A stretch of 64,000 nt of DNA from Thermodesulfobacteriota bacterium (GTDB lineage Bacteria; Desulfobacterota; BSN033; UBA1163), in NCBI GenBank assembly GCA_026415035.1, contig JAOAHX010000008.1, forward strand, positions 16,270-80,269. The letters are read 5' to 3'. How positions within the stretch are numbered: position 1 is the stretch's first letter; every line of letters begins with the position of its first letter. Both the position numbers and the translations under genes were made by a program. Shown one piece after another: positions 29,511 to 47,088 of this stretch. The notes under the pieces are model-generated. The model saw nothing but the letters and a program-made list of their open reading frames with translations, made no database searches and was not told the DNA's origin.

Positions 29511-32000
29511 CTACTCCTCCCGGATTTGGATTTGAGGATAGGTCCGGTAGACCCTCCAGATGGGATAAACGGCGGCTCCGATGCTGGCCAGAATGGCGAT
29601 GAGGCCCGTCCATAGATAAGGTTCGGGGGTAGGGTGATAGAAGATGGTCCAGTTGAAACTTCGGAGGTTGATCACCTTGATCAGGAGAACGGCAAGCCCG
29701 GTTCCGACGACGAGGCTCAGGATGAAACTGATCATCCCCATCCCCAGCCCCTCCATAAGCGTCATCTTCGCCACCTGACCCGTCGAAAATCCCAGGGCAC
29801 GGTAGATGCCGAACTCCCGGCTCCGCTCGATGAAGAGCGTCAGCAAAGCACCGGCGATGCCGAAAAAGGCGACGACGATGGCGATGACCCTCATGGAACG
29901 GGTGATGGCAAACGTCGTGTCAAACACCTCGAGGATCTCTCGATGGAGTTGAGCGCCCGTCAGCACCGGAAGCCCCCTCGCCTCCGCCCTCTTCTTCACC
30001 TCTTGGATCAGTTCGGATCTGCGCGGGTTGTCGGGGTCGATGAAGATCCCGATGTTGTTGAGGGTTCGGTCACCAAAAACCTTGAGATAGGTGGACCGGT
30101 CCATCATGACCAAGCCGTGTTCCGTGGTGTAATCGTAAAAGATGGCCCCGACCCTAAAGGCCGTAGGGCCTTGTCGGCCATCCAGCGTGATCGTATCACC
30201 CGATTTCACTCCAAAGCGCCTCGCAAAACTTTCGGAGACAATGACGCCACCCTGTTTGACAGGTTCCCAATTCTCATCCCCCCCTTTGACCCAGCCAAAC
30301 CGGGCATACTTCTGAAGGACCTTCGCATCCACCGCACTGATATGGATGGGGGTCTCTTGGTATAAGGTCTGGACATTGCGATAGGGATGGACCCCACCCA
30401 ATCCCTCCAACCCCTTCAGCTCCTCGAAGAAGTCCTCCGGGACCTCGGCTTCGAGGATCTTTCCGATGTAAAGATCCCCCCGGATCTGGGTGCCCATCCA
30501 CCAGATCAGGGACTGTCTGAAACTTCCGATCATCGTCCCCAGGCCGATCGACATGGAGAGCGAGATCATGAAGGCCGCGATGGCCACACCCGTCCTTCCG
30601 AGATTCTGCCGGATCGTCCCCGCCGCCACCTTCCCCGGAAGCCCTCCCCAAAGGACGAGGAGTTTTTTGAGAAAGGGGTGAAGGCCGAGGAGCAAGACGC
30701 CGGTGAGAAGGCTCGCCCCGAGGACGAAGCCGAAGACGCCGGCGAAACCGACATAGACATCGCCATCAGGGATGAGGAAGAGCATCAGGCTGACGAGAAA
30801 GACCGCAAGACCCGCGAGGGCCAATTGTATGGCCCGCTGGCCGCTCTTTCGGCCGGGCGCCCTTCCGCTCAAGGCTTGAACCGGATCGGTACGGATCAGT
30901 TCCACGAGGGGGACGATCCCTCCCACCAGGCCGGCGCCGCATCCGAGCAGGATGCCGACCACCGGGATCCAGAGCGACCAGACGACCGGTTCCGGTCTTA
31001 AGAAGAAGTAGAGATTGCTGATGGTATCGCCGATCATGCCGGTCAAAAATCGGGTCAAGAGATACCCCACCCAACCTCCGAGGGCTCCGCCGATGGCGCC
31101 GAGGATGAGGATCTCGGAAAGAAAGGCGAGAAAAATCTCGACCCTTGTTGCCCCGAGGCTCCTCAAGATGCCCGCATCGCGCCTTCGGCTGATGACCGTG
31201 AACATGGCGGTATTGTAGATGAGAAAGACGCCGACGAAGAGGGCCAACAGGGAGAGGGCCTCGAGATTGAGACGAAAGGCCCGAAGCATCCCGGAGTAGG
31301 TCTCGCTCCGCTGACGGGACGACTGGATGAGAAACCCTTTTCCCCAGCGAGACCGAAAACCGGGTTCGTCTGAAAGGATGAGGTCGACCCGGTCGACCCA
31401 GCCCTGGAGTTGATAGAGTTTCTGAGCATGACCGATATCCATGACCATCAGAGGCTCTGCCGAAGGATTGGAAAACACCCCCTTGACCCGAAGCCTCCCT
31501 TTCGTCGTCTCCAGGAGGGTATCGGGTGGGATTTCGATCTCTTCGATCAAATCCTGGTCCACGAGGACCGAGCGCTCGTCGGTCAAAAAGGAGAGGAGAT
31601 GAGAAAGGACGTCTGCCTTTTGATCCAGCCATTCCACACGGGCAAGTTCGGGGCGAAGCGTCCGGTCCAAAAACGGATCGATCCCCAGAAGCCGGACCTG
31701 GCCACCCTGGAGGAGGCTCAGCTGACGGTCGATGACCGGAGAGAACCACTCCACCGCAGGATCGCGGCTCAGTTGGATCAACAGGTGCTCCTCCATGGGA
31801 CCGACCGGTCTCTGGATCGAGTGGGTGGCTTGGCCTCTCAAAAATTCGATGGCCTTATGGAAACTCCGGAGGGCCGTCTGGGCGGAGAGGGTCATGCCCA
31901 CCACCGCGGCCACGCCGCAGGCCACGCCCATCAGTTGGAGGAGGCTGAGGCTCCGTCTGCGGGGAAGATAGCGGAGAAAGGATTTGGCGACGATCCTCAA
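29511..32000 (-). CDS. ABC transporter permease with duplicated FtsX-like domains (MacB/LolE-type)
   Basis: 829 aa, with two 4-TM FtsX-like modules each preceded by a large periplasmic domain. Overlaps the ATPase gene by 4 nt. Confidence 0.8.
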   Translation of the reverse strand: MRIVAKSFLRYLPRRRSLSLLQLMGVACGVAAVVGMTLSAQTALRSFHKAIEFLRGQATHSIQRPVGPMEEHLLIQLSRDPAVEWFSPVIDRQLSLLQGGQVRLLGIDPFLDRTLRPELARVEWLDQKADVLSHLLSFLTDERSVLVDQDLIEEIEIPPDTLLETTKGRLRVKGVFSNPSAEPLMVMDIGHAQKLYQLQGWVDRVDLILSDEPGFRSRWGKGFLIQSSRQRSETYSGMLRAFRLNLEALSLLALFVGVFLIYNTAMFTVISRRRDAGILRSLGATRVEIFLAFLSEILILGAIGGALGGWVGYLLTRFLTGMIGDTISNLYFFLRPEPVVWSLWIPVVGILLGCGAGLVGGIVPLVELIRTDPVQALSGRAPGRKSGQRAIQLALAGLAVFLVSLMLFLIPDGDVYVGFAGVFGFVLGASLLTGVLLLGLHPFLKKLLVLWGGLPGKVAAGTIRQNLGRTGVAIAAFMISLSMSIGLGTMIGSFRQSLIWWMGTQIRGDLYIGKILEAEVPEDFFEELKGLEGLGGVHPYRNVQTLYQETPIHISAVDAKVLQKYARFGWVKGGDENWEPVKQGGVIVSESFARRFGVKSGDTITLDGRQGPTAFRVGAIFYDYTTEHGLVMMDRSTYLKVFGDRTLNNIGIFIDPDNPRRSELIQEVKKRAEARGLPVLTGAQLHREILEVFDTTFAITRSMRVIAIVVAFFGIAGALLTLFIERSREFGIYRALGFSTGQVAKMTLMEGLGMGMISFILSLVVGTGLAVLLIKVINLRSFNWTIFYHPTPEPYLWTGLIAILASIGAAVYPIWRVYRTYPQIQIREE

Positions 32001-32686
32001 TGGGGCGATTCCTCACAGAAGGTCTCTTCGGTGATCACGCCATCGACCATTCTCAGGATGCGGGTCGCATAACGGCAGGTCAATGGGGAATGGGTGGCCA
32101 TGATCAGGGTGGTTCCTGATTCGCGACAGCTTCGGGTCAACAACTCGAGGATCTGGTTTCCTGTGGCCGTATCGAGATTTCCCGTGGGTTCATCGGCCAA
32201 GACGATGGTAGGGTTTTTTACGATGGCCCTGGCGATGGCCACCCGTTGCTGTTCCCCTCCGGAGAGCTCATTGGGATAGCGGCGTTCTTTGCCCTTAAGC
32301 CCCACGTCTCTCAAGGCCTGGAAGGCCAGCTCCGGCTCCGGCCGATTGGCCAGTTCGAGGGAGAGGTAGACGTTTTCGAAGGCCGTGAGGGTCGGAAGAA
32401 GGTTGAAGAACTGGAAGATGAATCCGATCTTCGCCCGTCTCAACAGCGTTCGGCCCCTCTCCCCAAGTTCCTCTAAATCTCGACCCTCCACCTCGATCCG
32501 TCCCCGTGTCGGACGATCCAGTCCCGCGATGAGGTTGAAGAGGGTCGTCTTTCCGGAGCCGCTCTTTCCGAAGAGGGCGACGACCTCTCCTGCCTCGATC
32601 TCGAGGCTCGTCCCACAGAGGGCGGGGGTGGCCGCCCCTACCTCCCCATAGTGTTTCCAAAGATCGTGGATTCGGATGAGGGCCAT
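31997..32686 (-). CDS. ABC transporter ATP-binding protein (LolD/MacB-NBD-like)
   Basis: Walker A GKSGSGKTT, signature LSGGEQQRVAIARA, Walker B LADEPTGNLD. Start placed at MALIRIHDL. Confidence 0.85.
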   Translation of the reverse strand: MALIRIHDLWKHYGEVGAATPALCGTSLEIEAGEVVALFGKSGSGKTTLFNLIAGLDRPTRGRIEVEGRDLEELGERGRTLLRRAKIGFIFQFFNLLPTLTAFENVYLSLELANRPEPELAFQALRDVGLKGKERRYPNELSGGEQQRVAIARAIVKNPTIVLADEPTGNLDTATGNQILELLTRSCRESGTTLIMATHSPLTCRYATRILRMVDGVITEETFCEESPH

Positions 32687-32696
32687 GGGGGGAAGG

Positions 32697-32900
32697 CTAA
32701 AGTTTTTCTGGGAAACAGAGGTTCTCCCCGCGAGCTGCGGCACGTCCGCAGTGTTGACAGAAATATTTGGCGTCCCGGATGAGCTCCTTGTATTCCTCCT
32801 GGGTCATGCTCTTCCGGAGCTCGCAGAGATGCCGTTCGTGTCCCTCATGGGGCACATTGAGAGCTGCCTCGGATAGGAAGACCTTTCCTGTGGTGGCCAT
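32697..32900 (-). CDS. small Cys-containing (zinc-ribbon-like) protein
   Basis: 67 aa with a CQHCGR pair plus two further Cys. A GGAGGGTG RBS sits 8 nt upstream of the ATG. It is the first gene of the ABC/AttH operon. Confidence 0.4.
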   Translation of the reverse strand: MATTGKVFLSEAALNVPHEGHERHLCELRKSMTQEEYKELIRDAKYFCQHCGRAAARGENLCFPEKL

Positions 32901-32955: not shown

Positions 32956-33819
32956 TCAAAGACCCCGTTTGGTTTCGATCCATTCGGAGAGTTTCTTCAG
33001 ATCCGGGCCCCTCGTGAAGAGAGGGGTTTTGTTTTCCCGATAGACCGTCAGGTTCTCTTCAAAGGTCGGCCTCGGGTTGAGGTAAAAGATCCCTAAAGGC
33101 ATGCGGTCGGTCTCCCAGGCCTTTTTGAGCGCCTCAACTCGATCGTAAGGATCGTGGTCCTCCCCAAGATAGTAAATCTTCGATTTAAACCACTGGTAGG
33201 TATTCAACTTGTTATAGGTAACGCAGGGCTGGAGGATGTCGACAAGGGCATACCCTTTGTGGGAGATCGCCTTTTTGATCAACTCCTTCGTCTGATCCAC
33301 ATCCCCGGCAAAGGCCCTGGCGACAAAGGAGGCCCCCAGGGTAATGGCGATCGCAAGGGGGTTGAAGGGTTCGTGAAAGACGCCTTCCCGCTGGACGAGG
33401 GTTTTGAACCCTTGAAGGCTCGTGGGCGAGGCCTGCCCTTTGGTCAACCCGTAGACCATGTTGTTGTGAACGATATTGGTGATGTCCGGGTTCCGACGAA
33501 TGGCGTGGAGAAAATGGTTCCCGCCCTCGCCATACATGCAGCCGTCACCGCTTTCGTCGATGACGATGAGGTCAGGGTTGACCGCTTTGATGGCGGTGGC
33601 CACGGGCAGGGATCGCCCGTGGAGGCCGTTGAAGAGGTTGCACCGGAAATAGTGGGGGGCTTTGGCCGCCTGTCCGATGCCCGAGACGACGACGAGCCTC
33701 TCGGGTTCGATCTGAAGCTCAAAAAGCGCGGCCTTCAGGGCCCTTAGGATGGCAAAATTCCCACAGCCCGGACACCAGGCGATATCCAATCCTTCTATGT
33801 CATATCGGTTCGTTTCCAT
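32956..33819 (-). CDS. korB: 2-oxoacid:ferredoxin oxidoreductase beta subunit (TPP-binding)
   Basis: CPGCGNF N-terminal motif, GDG...N TPP-binding motif ([15 protein letters not shown]). Confidence 0.85.
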
Positions 33820-33828
33820 TTGAGGCTC

Positions 33829-35553
33829 CTAAGGCAGGATCGATTGCAGCCGCCTTTCGAGATCGTCCACGGCAAAGGGAAGACCGTTATATTGAAGGAC
33901 CTGATCGTCCATCTCCAATCCCGTCTCCATCCGGAGGAGCCGGCCGAATTGGCCAGTGGCGTTGTTCTCGACGAGGACCCTCTTTTTGGCCTTGCGAAGA
34001 TACTGGCGTGTTTTCGGATGAAGGGGGTAGGTCTGTTTGAAGTGGAGGAACGATACCCCCTCCCTTCCCAGCCTTCTTATCGCCTCCTGGATCGCATGGT
34101 AGGTGGATCCCCATCCAACGATGAGGGTTTCGTACTCTTCGGGTCCATGAAGCTCTGGAGGGAGGAGGTCTTTCCTCAGGAGTTCCAATTTTTTGAGCCT
34201 CTTGTCAACCATCCTCGTTCTCAGGCCGAGATCTTCGGTGATGTGACCCTCCTCGTCGTGCTCATCGCTGTCGAGGACGACAAGCCCCTGGCCGTAACCG
34301 GGGATGCCCCGAGGTGAGAGGCCGTCCTCGGTGATTCGATAACGCTTATAATCGCGGTCCGTTTCGATAAAATGCCTTTTCGGTTGAAAATCGGAGAGGT
34401 CGATTGAGGGAATGTTGTAATGAGACTCGAGGAGGTATTGATCGGTTAAGATGAACACAGGGATTTGATATCGATCGGCCAGGTCGAAGGCCTTCTGGCC
34501 GAGATAGAAACAGTCTTCGATCGTCCCCGGGGTGAGGATCGCCCTCGGAAATTCCCCATGGCCTGCGAAGAGGGCAAAGAGGAGTTCCCCCTGTTCGGTC
34601 CGGGTGGGAAGCCCTGTGGCGGGACCCGGCCGTTGTCCGATATGGATGACCATGGGCGACTCGATCATCCCCGCAAGGCTCAACCCCTCGACCATCAGGG
34701 CAAAGCCTCCCCCCGAGGTGGAGGCCAAACCCCTGGCGCCCGCATACCAGGCGCCGAGGCCCATGTTCATGGCGCTGATCTCGTCCTCGGCCTGCTCCAC
34801 AATGAGGCCAAACTCGTTTGAGCGTTCTGCGAGATGCACGGCCAAAGCCGTGGAGGGGGACATGGGATAGAAAGCGAGGAAGTTGCATCCTCCGGCGATG
34901 ACGCCCATGGCGAGCGCTTCGACCCCGTCCAACAGGAGCTCGTTTTTGACGAGCTCGTGTTTCGTGAGGTCGATCCGGATGTGGCCGGATTGGAGGATGG
35001 CCGCGGCGATCTCATATCCCCTGTCCATCGCCTGAAGGTTTTTCTGGACGGTCTCTTCCTCTTTTCCCGAAAAATGGTGGCGGAGATACTGACGGAGCAA
35101 TTCCGTGTCCACCTGAAAGAGTCCGGCCAGGACTCCCGCCGCAACCGTGTTGATATAGATGAGGCCCCCCACTTCCTGGGCGATCGAAGAGAAAGGGACA
35201 TCCACGGCCCGGCAGGTCGGACATTCCTTTTCATAAAGGGCCTTCTCTCCCAACAGGAGAGTCTGAGGCGAGATATGTTTCTGAAGGTGATGGACCGCTC
35301 CGGGGTTGAAGGGGATCAAGAGATCGATTCGATTTACAGGGGCGGCCACCCGATGGTTGGAGACCCGAATCCAGGTGGAGTTGCTCCCGCCCCGGATGCG
35401 GGACATATATTCCTGGGAGGAAAAGACGTGATATCCCGAAAGCTTCAACGTTCGTGTGAGGAGGTGTTCGACGGTCTGAATCCCCTGACCCGCCTCTCCA
35501 CAGAGAACGATGGAGATCTCTTCCCCGAATCTACCGCTCCTTCCCTGTTCCAT
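33829..35553 (-). CDS. korA: 2-oxoacid:ferredoxin oxidoreductase alpha subunit (gamma-alpha fusion)
   Basis: N-terminal gamma-like domain (IVLCGEAGQGIQT), then the alpha catalytic domain. Lies 10 nt upstream of korB. Confidence 0.85.
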   Translation of the reverse strand: MEQGRSGRFGEEISIVLCGEAGQGIQTVEHLLTRTLKLSGYHVFSSQEYMSRIRGGSNSTWIRVSNHRVAAPVNRIDLLIPFNPGAVHHLQKHISPQTLLLGEKALYEKECPTCRAVDVPFSSIAQEVGGLIYINTVAAGVLAGLFQVDTELLRQYLRHHFSGKEEETVQKNLQAMDRGYEIAAAILQSGHIRIDLTKHELVKNELLLDGVEALAMGVIAGGCNFLAFYPMSPSTALAVHLAERSNEFGLIVEQAEDEISAMNMGLGAWYAGARGLASTSGGGFALMVEGLSLAGMIESPMVIHIGQRPGPATGLPTRTEQGELLFALFAGHGEFPRAILTPGTIEDCFYLGQKAFDLADRYQIPVFILTDQYLLESHYNIPSIDLSDFQPKRHFIETDRDYKRYRITEDGLSPRGIPGYGQGLVVLDSDEHDEEGHITEDLGLRTRMVDKRLKKLELLRKDLLPPELHGPEEYETLIVGWGSTYHAIQEAIRRLGREGVSFLHFKQTYPLHPKTRQYLRKAKKRVLVENNATGQFGRLLRMETGLEMDDQVLQYNGLPFAVDDLERRLQSILP

Positions 35554-36524: not shown

Positions 36525-37154
36525 ATGAAGCTTACGTCATTATTCCCTTTACTTCTTATCGGGACCTTGATGAACCTGCTGATGATGCTTGAGAGGGTTC
36601 CTCCAGTTGGAGCAAATCCCCTGACCCAAACCACATCTGCCTTTGATAAAGAGCTCCTCGAGGCCAGGAGAATTGCCAATGAGCTGATGGAGACCGTCCG
36701 TGGGCTTTTAATGCAGGAGATTCAGAAGGGAGGTTTCGAGGGCGCAGTCCGCGTCTGTTCCGAGCTGGCCCAGGAGATGACGGCCCGCCTCTCGAGCCAG
36801 ACCGGCCACCAAATCCGGAGGGTTAGCCTCAGGTACCGGAACCCCAAGAATATCCCAGACCCGTACGAGGCAAAAAGGTTACAGGAGCTCGATCGCCTCA
36901 ACCGGGAGAAAAGACTCCCTGAGGAGACCTTTGAGATCGTCGAAGAGGGCGGGGTCAAATATCTCCGTTATCTCAAACCCCTGACGGTCGCCCCTCTCTG
37001 TGTGACCTGTCATGGACCCAAGGAGAATATCCCCTCCGATGTCCAGGCCATCTTGAGGGAGAAGTATCCGGAGGATCGGGCCACGGGATTCCTCGTCGGA
37101 GACCTTCGGGGAGCCATCAGCGTGAAAATCCCCCTATCGGAGAGTCGGAGGTAG
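36525..37154 (+). CDS. secreted DUF3365-family (c-type heme-binding sensor-like) protein
   Basis: Signal peptide. The CVTCHG heme-binding motif sits in the conserved C-terminal region typical of DUF3365. Confidence 0.65.
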   Translation: MKLTSLFPLLLIGTLMNLLMMLERVPPVGANPLTQTTSAFDKELLEARRIANELMETVRGLLMQEIQKGGFEGAVRVCSELAQEMTARLSSQTGHQIRRVSLRYRNPKNIPDPYEAKRLQELDRLNREKRLPEETFEIVEEGGVKYLRYLKPLTVAPLCVTCHGPKENIPSDVQAILREKYPEDRATGFLVGDLRGAISVKIPLSESRR

Positions 37155-37187
37155 GGGAGGACGAGAGGCGGCAGGAGAAAGGACGGG

Positions 37188-37352
37188 ATGGCCATCGACA
37201 AAGAGTCGCTCATCCGCCTCATCTGCGGCCATTGCGATTTTTACAAAGAATCCGAGAAGGATCTCGAATGCGGCGCCTTCAAGATCCTGAGAGCCCTTCT
37301 TGAAAAGGGGATCGTCACGCCGGAAGAGATCGAGGATGCCCTACGAAGGTAG
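37188..37352 (+). CDS. 54-aa Cys-containing peptide (MAIDKESLIRLICGHCDFYKESEKDLECGAFKILRALLEKGIVTPEEIEDALRR), putative RiPP precursor; absent from the ORF track (under 60 aa)
   Basis: ATG has an AGGA RBS 8 nt upstream. Three Cys (CGHC pair plus ECG). The stop codon lies 16 nt inside the start of the downstream radical SAM/SPASM gene. Confidence 0.5.
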   Translation: MAIDKESLIRLICGHCDFYKESEKDLECGAFKILRALLEKGIVTPEEIEDALRR

Positions 37353-38511
37353 ATTCTTGACCCTCGCCCCCCATTGCACCCTCAAGAGGCTCGAAAAGCC
37401 CTACCTCTTCGATATCGAAAACGATCAGCTATACGAGCTGGGGGAGGAGGCCTTTCAATTCCTTTTGAAGGCTTCGAGGGGAGAACCCCTCTCGGCCACC
37501 GAAGAGGAAGAAGGGTTTCTCCACTACTGCCTCTCAGAGCAACTCGTCACGATCTCAGAGAGGCCGGTTCCGAGAACGTTCCGGTTGGATCCCTCGCCCG
37601 TTCCTTCTCTAAGGTATCTCGAACTCCTGATCACCGATCGCTGTAACCTCCGCTGTCGCCACTGCTATCTTGGAGAAGGGCGAGGCCAGGATCTCCCTTT
37701 CGTAACCATCCTCAAGGTCCTCGAAGAGTTCGAATCGATCCAGGGGCTCAGGCTCCTCCTTTCTGGTGGAGAACCCCTGCTTCATCCCGACTTCTGGGCG
37801 ATCAATGACGTTTTAACGAATTACCCATTCCGATCCGTCATGCTCTCCAACGGGACGTTGATAACCGAGAACGTCGCCCGGAGGCTTCGCCTCCACGAAG
37901 TCCAGTTGAGCCTCGACGGGATGAAGAAGGGACACGAAGCGATCCGGGGAGAAGGGACCTTCGAAAAGGTCCTCCGGGCCATTGACCTCCTCCAAGAGGC
38001 CGGTCTCCGGGTCTCGATCGCCACGATGATCCATCGAAAAAATTTAGAGGAGTTCGAGGAGCTGGCCTCCTTGCTTCAGTCCAAAGGGATCGAGGAGTGG
38101 AATGTTGATATCCCATGTCCCGCGGGCAGACTCGAGGAGAGTCAAGACCTCTGGGTCTCGCCCGAGGAAGGAGGCCCTCTTTTGCGCTACGGATTCGGGG
38201 GAGGATTTCACGGTTCGGAGCATAGGGAAATCTGCGGCGCCCACCTCTGCGCAGTCCTTCCGGACGGAACCGTCGCCAAATGCGGTCTCTTCGGCGACGA
38301 ACCCCTCGGCACGATCGAAGAGGGGCTGCGGGTCTGCTGGGAGCGGATGGCCCGAATCCCCCTCGATCGGTTGAAGTGCCGGTGCGAGGTGATCGAGGAG
38401 TGCCGAGGAGGATGCCGCTTTCGGGCCAAAAGGCTCGGAGATTTTTATGGGCCGGACCTCTACCAATGCTTCGCCCGCGGGGTTCTCCCTTCCACCTCCG
38501 AATCTCCTTGA
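37336..38511 (+). CDS. radical SAM/SPASM-domain peptide-modifying enzyme with N-terminal PqqD-like RRE
   Basis: N-terminal KPYLFDIENDQLYELGEEAFQFLL is PqqD/RRE-like. CNLRCRHC is the CxxxCxxC motif. GGEPLL is present. The C-terminal Cys-rich SPASM region is CGAHLCAVLPDGTVAKCG ... CRCEVIEECRGGCRFRAK. Start chosen at MPYEGRF (37336); the ORF track's upstream extension is MKRGSSRRKRSR. Confidence 0.8.
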   Translation: MPYEGRFLTLAPHCTLKRLEKPYLFDIENDQLYELGEEAFQFLLKASRGEPLSATEEEEGFLHYCLSEQLVTISERPVPRTFRLDPSPVPSLRYLELLITDRCNLRCRHCYLGEGRGQDLPFVTILKVLEEFESIQGLRLLLSGGEPLLHPDFWAINDVLTNYPFRSVMLSNGTLITENVARRLRLHEVQLSLDGMKKGHEAIRGEGTFEKVLRAIDLLQEAGLRVSIATMIHRKNLEEFEELASLLQSKGIEEWNVDIPCPAGRLEESQDLWVSPEEGGPLLRYGFGGGFHGSEHREICGAHLCAVLPDGTVAKCGLFGDEPLGTIEEGLRVCWERMARIPLDRLKCRCEVIEECRGGCRFRAKRLGDFYGPDLYQCFARGVLPSTSESP

Positions 38512-38571
38512 CATGGACGAGGGATTTGATATATTGGGAGGCATAATTCCAAGGTTTAAAGGAGGGGAAGC

Positions 38572-45759: not shown

Positions 45760-47088
45760 ATGGGCACAAAACACTCCCCTCACATCCTCCTCCTCAATCC
45801 CTGGATCACCGATTTTGCCGCCTATAATTTCTGGATCAGGCCTTTCGGGCTCCTCTATATCGCAAGCCTCCTCAAGGAGTATGGGTTTAGAGTCACCCTG
45901 GTGGATTGTCTCGAGTACGATCGTCGGGTCAAGAGGTATGGGGATGGGAAATTTTTCAGGTCGAAAATTGCAAAGCCCGATCCACTTCGTTCCATCCCGA
46001 GGCACTATTGCCGGTATGGAATTCCTGAAGAAATGTTGTTGAAAAGACTCTCATCCCTTGAAGGAAGGCCAGACCTTATCGGGATCACTTCTGGGATGAC
46101 CTACTGGTATCCAGGGGTATTTAAACTTATCGAAATCCTAAGGGATATATTTCCTGAGGTCCCGGTGGTTCTCGGTGGAATTTATGCAACCCTCTGCCAC
46201 GATCACGCCCAGAAGCATTCTGGCGCAGATGTCGTGTTGACAAAGGGAGACGATGGGGCAGTGGTGGAAGGGATCTCCCAATTGATCGGTTTTCCGACCC
46301 CGCCCCCTAAAACCGAACCCCGAACCGACCTTTATCCCTCCTTCGACCTCTATCCCCGACACGATTATGTCTGCATCGCCACCTCAAAGGGGTGTCCCTT
46401 CCGGTGCGCCTATTGTGCCTCTCCGATCCTTTCCAAGGAATTCGTCAGACGGGACCCTTTCAAGGTCGTGGACGAGATCGAATATTGGGTCTCCCGGTTT
46501 GGGGTGTTTAACGTGGCGTTTTATGACGATGCCCTGCTGGTCGATTCCAGAAATCATTTCATCCCGATGATGAAGGAGATCATCAGAAGGGAGATCCAGG
46601 TCAATTTTCATACGCCCAATGCCCTTCATATCCGGGAGATCGATGAGGAGGTGGCCAGGCTTCTTTTTCAGGGCGGGTTTAAGACGATCCGGCTGGGCCT
46701 CGAGACGTCGAACGAGGAGGCCCAGATCGAAACAGGAGGGAAGGTAAGCAATCAGGACTTCCGAAGGGCCGTTTACCATCTCCAAAAGGCTGGATACTCG
46801 ACCGATGAGATCGGCGTTTACATCATGGCAGGGTTGCCCGGGCAGAGGGTTGAAGAAGTCACCGAAAGCATTGCCTTCGTCAGGGAGGCAGGAGCAAAGC
46901 CCATTCTCGTGGAATACTCACCCATCCCGGGAACGCCCCTCTTCGAGAAGGCGAAGCGGTTCTCTCCCTACGACATCGAGAAAGAACCTCTCTTCCAGAA
47001 CAACACCCTCTTTCCCTGCCAGTGGGAGGGGTTTACGTTGATGGACTTCAGGCGATTGAAGGAGAAGCTCAGGAGCGGAGAGGCCTGA
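45760..47088 (+). CDS. B12-binding-domain radical SAM protein (class B)
   Basis: N-terminal Rossmann-like cobalamin-binding domain (ILLLNPW...GFRVTLVDC), then CPFRCAYC (CxxxCxxC). Confidence 0.8.
   Translation: MGTKHSPHILLLNPWITDFAAYNFWIRPFGLLYIASLLKEYGFRVTLVDCLEYDRRVKRYGDGKFFRSKIAKPDPLRSIPRHYCRYGIPEEMLLKRLSSLEGRPDLIGITSGMTYWYPGVFKLIEILRDIFPEVPVVLGGIYATLCHDHAQKHSGADVVLTKGDDGAVVEGISQLIGFPTPPPKTEPRTDLYPSFDLYPRHDYVCIATSKGCPFRCAYCASPILSKEFVRRDPFKVVDEIEYWVSRFGVFNVAFYDDALLVDSRNHFIPMMKEIIRREIQVNFHTPNALHIREIDEEVARLLFQGGFKTIRLGLETSNEEAQIETGGKVSNQDFRRAVYHLQKAGYSTDEIGVYIMAGLPGQRVEEVTESIAFVREAGAKPILVEYSPIPGTPLFEKAKRFSPYDIEKEPLFQNNTLFPCQWEGFTLMDFRRLKEKLRSGEA

Follow-up and report, generated by a model that had tools for sequence, protein, structure and literature searches.

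We describe here a pair of overlapping genes on the forward strand of a 64,000-nucleotide stretch of Thermodesulfobacteriota DNA (the window, to which positions given without a locus refer), which encode a 54-amino-acid protein with three cysteines and a 391-amino-acid radical S-adenosylmethionine (SAM) enzyme. Both genes are real and tightly coupled, and bacteria and archaea alike have inherited them together; the enzyme, judged by its structural model, has the fold of the radical SAM-SPASM maturases that modify peptides. We conclude that the pair probably constitutes a new system for the modification of a small protein. The reading that we favor, and to which we give an even chance, is that the two genes form a self-contained substrate-maturase module resembling that of the SCIFF peptides, the product of which would be intracellular. 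The elements of the module are as follows (RRE, recognition element of peptides synthesized by ribosomes and modified post-translationally (RiPPs)):

37173-37177 and 37180-37183, + strand: Shine-Dalgarno-like AGGAG and AGGA, 5′ of the ATG of the small gene (direct sequence reading)
37188..37352, + strand: gene for the small 54-amino-acid three-cysteine protein, an ATG-to-TAG open reading frame (ORF), MAIDKESLIRLICGHCDFYKESEKDLECGAFKILRALLEKGIVTPEEIEDALRR
37336..38511, + strand: gene for the radical SAM enzyme, 391 amino acids, overlapping the small gene by 17 nucleotides
37336..37605, + strand: N-terminal domain of the enzyme (residues 1-90), RRE-like β-sheet and helices as predicted (DSSP of an AlphaFold2 model, conservation)
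37642..37665, + strand: CX3CX2C radical SAM cluster motif, CNLRCRHC (Cys-103, Cys-107, and Cys-110; sequence, invariant in the alignment)
38191..38508, + strand: SPASM-type C-terminal domain of the enzyme (residues 286-391; Cys pattern in the alignment)

The preliminary description of this DNA had placed a small gene at position 37188, behind an AGGA ribosome-binding site, and had called it hidden. We find the 54-residue ORF as described, with an identical peptide sequence and with both AGGAG and AGGA ahead of its ATG; further, in the alignment of loci, a purine-rich GAGG/AGGA-type stretch lies upstream of the homologous starts in most other loci. The deposited record annotates the ORF as a hypothetical protein, and the gene was therefore hidden solely by the 60-residue cutoff of the ORF list from which the description was made. 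Homologues of the small protein fall into 133 clusters at 63-83% identity, nearly all of which are 52-54 amino acids long or carry spurious upstream extensions. Over 35 ungapped orthologous DNA sequences, the entropy at codon positions 1, 2, and 3 was 0.57, 0.42, and 1.26, respectively, and the mean ratio of nonsynonymous to synonymous differences (pN/pS) was 0.25, with synonymous sites near saturation. Because of the homologue clusters, the variability at third codon positions, and the low pN/pS, we conclude that the small ORF is a genuine gene and not a chance ORF.

The pairing of the two genes was followed in 48 loci seeded with the small protein, 47 of which came from scanning a single genome for each species and one (L001) from its exact protein sequence. 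In 46 of these loci, the gene directly downstream, which begins within a few bases of the stop codon of the small gene, encodes a homologue of the enzyme; the two genes overlap mostly by 4-17 nucleotides, and a start/stop or few-base overlap is seen in almost every related locus. In the window, the overlap is 17 nucleotides (37336-37352), in agreement with a peptide stop codon said to lie 16 nucleotides inside the enzyme gene. The taxa that carry the pair are Syntrophaceae, Syntrophorhabdus, other Thermodesulfobacteriota, Nitrospirota, Archaeoglobaceae, Methanoperedens, and a metagenome-assembled genome (MAG) of Methanosarcinales. For the loci from archaea and Nitrospirota, identity is 52-62% in the small protein and 37-48% in the enzyme. 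The two exceptions are a locus (L009, 2552-7244) in which an insertion of ~3.3 kb with TspO-like and photolyase-like genes parts the small gene and a degraded remnant of the N-terminal domain from an intact enzyme gene, and a second, orphan copy of the small gene (L047) in an archaeon that has a complete pair elsewhere (L043). Conversely, three look-ups seeded with the enzyme gave four loci, two of which are copies of one region, and the small ORF was present at a 17-nucleotide overlap in all four, although it is unannotated in two of them. This pairing persists across phyla and through changes of gene order, and it therefore provides strong evidence that the small-protein and enzyme families are functionally linked. 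It also bears out the expectation that peptide homologues would co-occur with radical SAM-SPASM genes elsewhere; lack of conservation of the small ORF, named in advance as a refuting outcome, did not occur, as both sequence and synteny are kept across phyla. We also observed a local tandem duplication in locus L049 (3020-3753), in which the small gene is followed by a 120-amino-acid ORF, consisting of a fragment of the enzyme N-terminal domain fused to a second copy of the small protein, and then by the start of the enzyme.

The same counts bear on the idea that the pairing is incidental, the enzyme being a cofactor-pathway radical SAM-SPASM protein that carries out AhbD/NirJ-like chemistry on heme or a small molecule and the small ORF being unrelated to it. 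We regard this as very improbable. The pair is kept in 46 of 48 and in 4 of 4 loci despite the distances and rearrangements involved; the matches of the enzyme to cofactor families lie far under their cutoffs (95 versus 500 bits and similar) and comprise the common core only; no tetrapyrrole genes are conserved nearby; and the enzyme has an extra N-terminal domain, whereas, to our knowledge, AhbD/NirJ-like enzymes have none of this kind.

The radical SAM ORF is open from a TTG at 37300, and the ATG at 37336 is the start of all homologues and of the deposited 391-residue protein. In an alignment of the enzyme with 30 homologues (down to 38% identity), which underlies all conservation statements on the enzyme below, Cys-103, Cys-107, and Cys-110 (C-x3-C-x2-C) are invariant; a motif of this kind binds the [4Fe-4S] cluster that cleaves SAM. 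The sole Pfam match is to PF04055 (residues 98-247, 89.5 bits versus a cutoff of 29.5), and the barrel superposes on many radical SAM structures. A SPASM domain has seven cysteines for two auxiliary [4Fe-4S] clusters, in the order CX9-15GX4C ... CX2CX5CX3C ... C. The C terminus shows the pattern C300-x10-G311-x4-C316, C348-x1-C350-x5-C356-x3-C360, and C378, in which seven cysteines are invariant, and Cys-305 is nearly so; the window enzyme has CX1C at Cys-348/Cys-350, and some archaeal homologues show the canonical CX2CX5CX3C. The CNLRCRHC motif and the Cys-rich C terminus were thus rightly noted before. As for the assignment to SPASM, the Cys pattern, the predicted fold, and a homologue that is 35% identical and aligns end to end (L053, the C terminus of which matches PF13186 with 25 bits versus a cutoff of 21.5) argue for it; the PF13186 hidden Markov model (HMM) itself does not match the window enzyme, either as the whole protein or as the C terminus alone (E ≤ 10). 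We therefore speak of a putative SPASM domain that is recognized by motif, model, and homology and is missed by the HMM.

The nearest NCBIfam matches of the enzyme are all radical SAM/SPASM families, namely ScmE (the top match, 103 bits versus a cutoff of 400), WgkB, AhbD, the ACGX-system enzyme, NirJ, MftC, and StsB. The scores, about 80-103 bits versus cutoffs of 265-650, cover the common core alone, and none among the best 25 of 76 matched families reaches its cutoff, indicating that the enzyme is in no named family. Structure comparison of the AlphaFold2 model gave the peptide maturases SuiB and SkfB as the closest matches, and the relatives by structure include maturases of antibiotics. 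The N-terminal domain of the model consists of strands at residues 7-10, 14-18, 22-26, and 31-34, helices at 37-47 and 56-67, and a strand at 71-74 (DSSP), and its Asp-30 and Tyr-33 (and Glu-68) are invariant. These conserved residues imply that the domain belongs to the protein and that the true start is not further downstream. The possibility that the enzyme is an anaerobic sulfatase-maturating enzyme (anSME) with a downstream start, raised earlier as a case that would undo the proposal, was rejected, as conservation of the N-terminal domain begins at residue 1. Enzymes of the anSME type, which act on a C/S-x-P-x-R motif of sulfatases, have no RRE; the structural alignment spans 339 residues with SuiB versus 275 with anSME, and, on the model, the former implies that part of the N-terminal domain superposes as well.

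In the small protein, Cys-13, Cys-16, and Cys-28 are invariant in an alignment of bacterial and archaeal members, which share the core motif L-I-C-x-x-C-[DE]-F-Y-K-[ED]-S-[ED]-K-D-L-E-C-G-A-[FY]-K-I-L followed by an amphipathic segment, L-L-E-K-G-x-I-T-P-E-E-I. At 50% identity, the representatives number 113 in an exhaustive profile search; apart from three longer proteins that match weakly and in part, every one is small. The small protein had no match in Pfam, NCBIfam, or the PDB; the NCBIfam search returned only a chance-level match to a cyclic di-GMP motif (E = 0.011). With neither the small protein nor the enzyme falling in a named family, the suggestion that this may be an unclassified family stands. 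The AlphaFold2 model of the small protein predicts four helices (predicted local distance difference test score of 77.5), with the cysteines at helix ends. Direct reading of the sequence revealed no signal peptide, no double-glycine site, and no leader-cleavage motif, nor is there a C-terminal GVY as in MftA, in line with the earlier remark that C-terminal GG and CGVY-type motifs are missing; Trp, Lys-x-Trp, and the E-x3-Y motif of PqqA are likewise absent. In one MAG (L037, 7383-7547), the third invariant cysteine is replaced by tyrosine (DLEYGAY), and the adjoining enzyme gene is intact; either an error in sequencing or decay of this copy could account for the variant.

We favor a substrate-maturase module because of the fold relatives of the enzyme, its extra N-terminal domain, the invariant cysteines of the small protein, and a linkage that withstands rearrangement. 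In this module, the 54-amino-acid protein would be the substrate of the enzyme, and its conserved hydrophobic N-terminal stretch L-I-x-L-I-C may dock on the RRE-like N-terminal domain. An RRE binds a precursor peptide by its leader. The radical SAM core would cleave SAM and take a hydrogen atom from the small protein, after which the auxiliary clusters of the SPASM domain would aid the formation of at least one intramolecular cross-link, most plausibly a thioether from the three invariant cysteines. The modified small protein would then stay in the cell as a stabilized redox- or metal-related protein and not be exported as an antibiotic. The role of the small protein as substrate, the type of cross-link, and the intracellular redox function are our inferences. 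An intracellular role is consistent with the lack of a signal peptide, a double-glycine site, and a conserved protease, and a redox-related role with the genes found around the pair (NifU/NifS, rubrerythrin, and oxidoreductase genes) and around its relatives (also superoxide dismutase (SOD), peroxiredoxin, and nitroreductase genes).

These relatives contain two repeats, of which the first has three cysteines (C-x3-C-x12-C) and the second four (C-x2-C-x6-C-D-F ... P-C-G-G-[YF]); all 3 + 4 cysteines are strictly conserved, and no Pfam family matched. In L053, the enzyme homologue is directly upstream of the two-repeat relative, and among 41 metagenome loci with two-repeat relatives, at least 22 have, divergently upstream, a member of the enzyme family with 40-47% identity, aligned over residues 10-385. 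The two-repeat relative heads an apparent operon that continues with a rubrerythrin-like protein (17 loci; 155 amino acids in the metagenome loci L054-L094 and L052) and then with the α and β subunits of a 2-oxoacid:ferredoxin oxidoreductase (15 loci). Genes for a nitroreductase, a peroxiredoxin, SOD, and a DsrC/TusE-like protein are often near.

Several observations weigh against the small protein being a substrate. It is conserved along all 54 residues from bacteria to archaea (52-83% identity), and its model has a compact four-helix fold; a partner subunit that is folded would explain this no less well than a peptide substrate. Beyond the cysteines and a few aromatic or glycine positions, the wider family keeps no residue that might be an acceptor, and Asp-17 is replaced there by Pro, Gln, or Asn. 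The conserved start/stop overlap suggests roughly equimolar synthesis, which would be unusual for a precursor and its enzyme. In one branch of the two-repeat relatives (e.g. L058), no radical SAM gene lies within 6 kb, and in the case of P0331, no enzyme homologue adjoins. Further, the N-terminal domain of the enzyme had been called a PqqD-like recognition element, and this could not be upheld at the level of sequence: the PF05402 (PqqD) HMM gave no match to the domain in the window enzyme and reached only E = 0.073 (13.9 bits versus a cutoff of 23.4) in one homologue (L048), and a search of the PDB with a profile of the domain found no RRE-containing chain. An RRE is a winged helix-turn-helix with the secondary-structure order βββ-ααα (PMC12710340), whereas the order predicted here is ββββ-αα-β, with the sheet first and two helices in place of three. 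The middle helix is missing in the bacterial clade, and archaeal homologues have an extra CDGxxTLxEL segment at that place.

Seen in this light, the small protein could be a metal-binding partner subunit, a mini Fe-S or Zn protein, and not a substrate. Its ligands would be Cys-13, Cys-16, and Cys-28 with a fourth ligand, or a dimer, or the small protein and the enzyme together, would share a cluster; docked on the N-terminal domain, the small protein would serve as an electron relay, a cluster donor, or a specificity factor, and the enzyme would act on another substrate. The conservation over the whole length, the four-helix prediction (confident enough for this purpose) with cysteines at helix ends, and a translational coupling that suggests 1:1 stoichiometry all suit such a role, as do the 3 + 4 conserved cysteines of the two-repeat relatives, reminiscent of a two-site metalloprotein, the operons that they share with a rubrerythrin-like protein and an oxidoreductase, sometimes without an adjoining enzyme, and the NifU/NifS genes near 12-13 loci. 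We nevertheless consider it unlikely, although the most serious of the alternatives: three cysteines by themselves are no standard metal site, the nearest structural relatives of the enzyme all modify peptides encoded beside them, and we know of no precedent for a metal-binding partner subunit among radical SAM-SPASM enzymes.

More speculatively, and with considerable doubt, we propose that the three-cysteine domain may represent a hitherto unrecognized class of protein-derived redox component. In strict anaerobes, bacterial as well as archaeal, a folded mini-protein of one or two repeats, cross-linked or otherwise remodeled by a radical SAM enzyme, would serve as a dedicated electron carrier or protectant between 2-oxoacid:ferredoxin oxidoreductases of two subunits and peroxidases of the rubrerythrin type. 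By analogy, its logic would be akin to that of mycofactocin or QhpC, and its chemistry and niche (oxidative stress or low-potential electron transfer) would be new.

The genes around the pair in the window are as follows (TRAP, tripartite ATP-independent periplasmic):

29511-32743, - strand: MacB/FtsX-type permease (29511-32000) and ATPase, a recurrent neighbor (Pfam)
32956..35553, - strand: two-subunit 2-oxoacid:ferredoxin oxidoreductase, β subunit 32956-33819 and α subunit 33829-35553 (Pfam POR, POR_N, TPP_enzyme_C, and PFO_beta_C)
36525..37154, + strand: Tll0287-like (DUF3365) heme c protein with CxxCH (PF11845, E = 1e-28)
38508..38535, + strand: strong σ70-like promoter, TTGACA-16-TATATT with TG, 11/12 matches, directly after the enzyme stop codon
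38508-43351, + strand: TAXI-family TRAP transporter unit (solute-binding protein, DUF1850 protein, and fused DctM-type permease; NCBIfam TAXI match)

Beyond the enzyme, no neighbor is universal among the loci. NifU and NifS genes lie divergently upstream of the pair in 12-13 of them, and genes for rubrerythrin/ferritin-like, YbgA-like 2-thiouracil desulfurase/DUF1722, and flavin-dependent (FAD) amine-oxidase-like proteins recur; no protease and no tetrapyrrole genes are conserved near the pair in the 48 loci. The 2-oxoacid:ferredoxin oxidoreductase of the window is 44% and 56% identical to that of L058, which is co-operonic with a two-repeat relative, and an oxidoreductase is also near the pair in L003 and L006; it is a possible functional associate of the pair. 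The DUF3365 gene indeed ends 33 nucleotides 5′ of the small gene, as reported, and is possibly co-transcribed with it. The redox partnership once suggested for its product is not borne out, as the gene adjoins the pair in no locus other than the window and L003; a DUF3365/Tll0287 protein, a ZIP transporter, and the TAXI-TRAP genes are common only to the window and this nearest relative. On the other side, the TAXI-TRAP unit is preceded by the near-consensus, extended -10 promoter-like site at 38508-38535, and its genes are therefore taken as a separate unit, with the module ending at the enzyme. An Rfam scan of the window found no element near the module; its sole match was a cobalamin riboswitch (RF00174, 9930-10157, + strand, 77 bits) over the full length of the model. 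A further radical SAM gene (45760-47088, + strand), ~7 kb downstream, is of the B12-binding class (PF02310 and PF04055) and of another family than the paired enzyme.

The neighborhood also bears on whether the small protein is the precursor of a classical secreted RiPP, i.e. a sactipeptide or ranthipeptide antibiotic or signal with a leader that is cleaved and a modified core that is exported; some lineages would first tailor it further with an ATP-grasp-like enzyme and then use a MacB-type ATP-binding cassette (ABC) transporter. The thioethers of sactipeptides and ranthipeptides, formed by the radical SAM enzyme, join a Cys sulfur to an α-, β-, or γ-carbon. An ATP-grasp-like protein (PF02655, E = 3.5e-9) is encoded 3′ of the enzyme in 27 Thermodesulfobacteriota loci; in one Syntrophaceae subclade, the small gene, the enzyme, the ATP-grasp gene, two genes for small membrane proteins, the ABC ATPase, and the FtsX/MacB permease are co-directional; the permease and ATPase recur in 9 of 48 loci, the window (29511-32000 for the permease) included; and there are antibiotic maturases among the relatives of the enzyme. 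We still think this improbable for several reasons. The ATP-grasp-like gene is absent from the 64-kb window and from the archaeal and Nitrospirota loci, and the transporter of the window is on the opposite strand, ~4.4 kb away, beyond the oxidoreductase genes. Neither a motif for leader cleavage nor a conserved peptidase is present. Conservation is uniform over the 54 residues, with no variable core as expected of a leader-core precursor, and in archaea and Nitrospirota, the small protein is even better conserved than the enzyme; such vertical-looking, cross-domain conservation is atypical of antibiotics. The absence of a variable core, the predicted fold, the absence of a cleavage or export signature, and the housekeeping-like inheritance in two domains thus make it unlikely that the product is a classical secreted RiPP. 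The canonical precursor-maturase layout that the preliminary description saw here is therefore retained insofar as a small gene and an enzyme are conserved and coupled and is weakened insofar as it implies a classical RiPP precursor, since the small protein is conserved over its whole length and predicted to have a four-helix fold, no protease is conserved, and only a minority of loci have a transporter close by. As a separate observation, the ATP-grasp-like protein (L011 9523-10443 and 26 other loci) always begins with MYLGIDFL...EVNVGLPGG, an N terminus that resembles the C-terminal Mg-binding E-x-N segment of ATP-grasp enzymes, and the N-terminal half of PF02655 then follows at residues 98-201; judged by this order of segments, the protein may be a circular permutation.

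Among known systems, the closest functional analogies to the substrate-maturase module are SCIFF/ranthipeptide maturation (CteB/Tte1186), which involves a conserved Cys peptide the cellular role of which is not known, and protein-derived redox components such as QhpC or mycofactocin. However, SCIFF has six cysteines in 45 residues and occurs in Clostridia, whereas the small protein has three, lacks the C-terminal Cys-rich tail, is predicted to be helical, and occurs in Thermodesulfobacteriota, Nitrospirota, and archaea. The small protein does not match the peptide model TIGR03973, and the enzyme does not reach TIGR03974 among its best 25 of 76 matches; that the peptide itself is not SCIFF-like had been recognized from its cysteine count. 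SuiB, which forms the Lys-Trp cross-link of streptide in SuiA, is 17% identical to the enzyme, but the substrate proposed here has no Lys-x-Trp and no Trp at all, and no NCBIfam family of the streptide type claims the enzyme among the same best 25 matches. For SkfB and PqqE, the sequence alignment with the enzyme in a PDB search is limited to the radical SAM core, and the small protein has neither SkfA-like features nor the PqqA motif. QhpD/QhpC and MftC/MftA are similar in that a conserved, intracellular, redox-linked product arises from a small polypeptide rich in Cys or acidic residues, with oxidoreductases in the context; the enzyme, however, scores 88.9 bits against MftC (cutoff of 265), and the small protein has no similarity to QhpC. 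No pqq or skf accessory genes, no MftB/D/E/F genes, and no Qhp subunit genes were found near the pair. Identity with the mycofactocin or PQQ system was rejected, with MftC under its cutoff, PqqE a core-level PDB match only, and the MftA and PqqA motifs absent. Searches of the literature by system terms and motif strings, which covered fewer than all journals, found no report on the small protein or the enzyme. A small Cys peptide next to an RRE-type radical SAM-SPASM enzyme is a known architecture, and the families of this pair are without a curated model.

The pairing of radical SAM/SPASM enzymes with small Cys peptides has been fruitful for the discovery of new protein chemistry, and the majority of the characterized pairs yield natural products specific to a lineage. 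The pair described here looks like a housekeeping module, almost unchanged in syntrophic and sulfate-reducer-related bacteria, Nitrospirota, and Archaeoglobi/Methanoperedens, and its relatives belong to operons that serve the oxidation of 2-oxoacids and the detoxification of peroxide. Should the small protein be a metal-binding partner instead of a substrate, it would represent a new kind of accessory subunit for radical SAM-SPASM enzymes. If it is modified, as we favor, the pair would offer a small, tractable substrate and enzyme (54 and 391 amino acids, respectively) and would reveal a new conserved post-translational modification in the core physiology of anaerobes.

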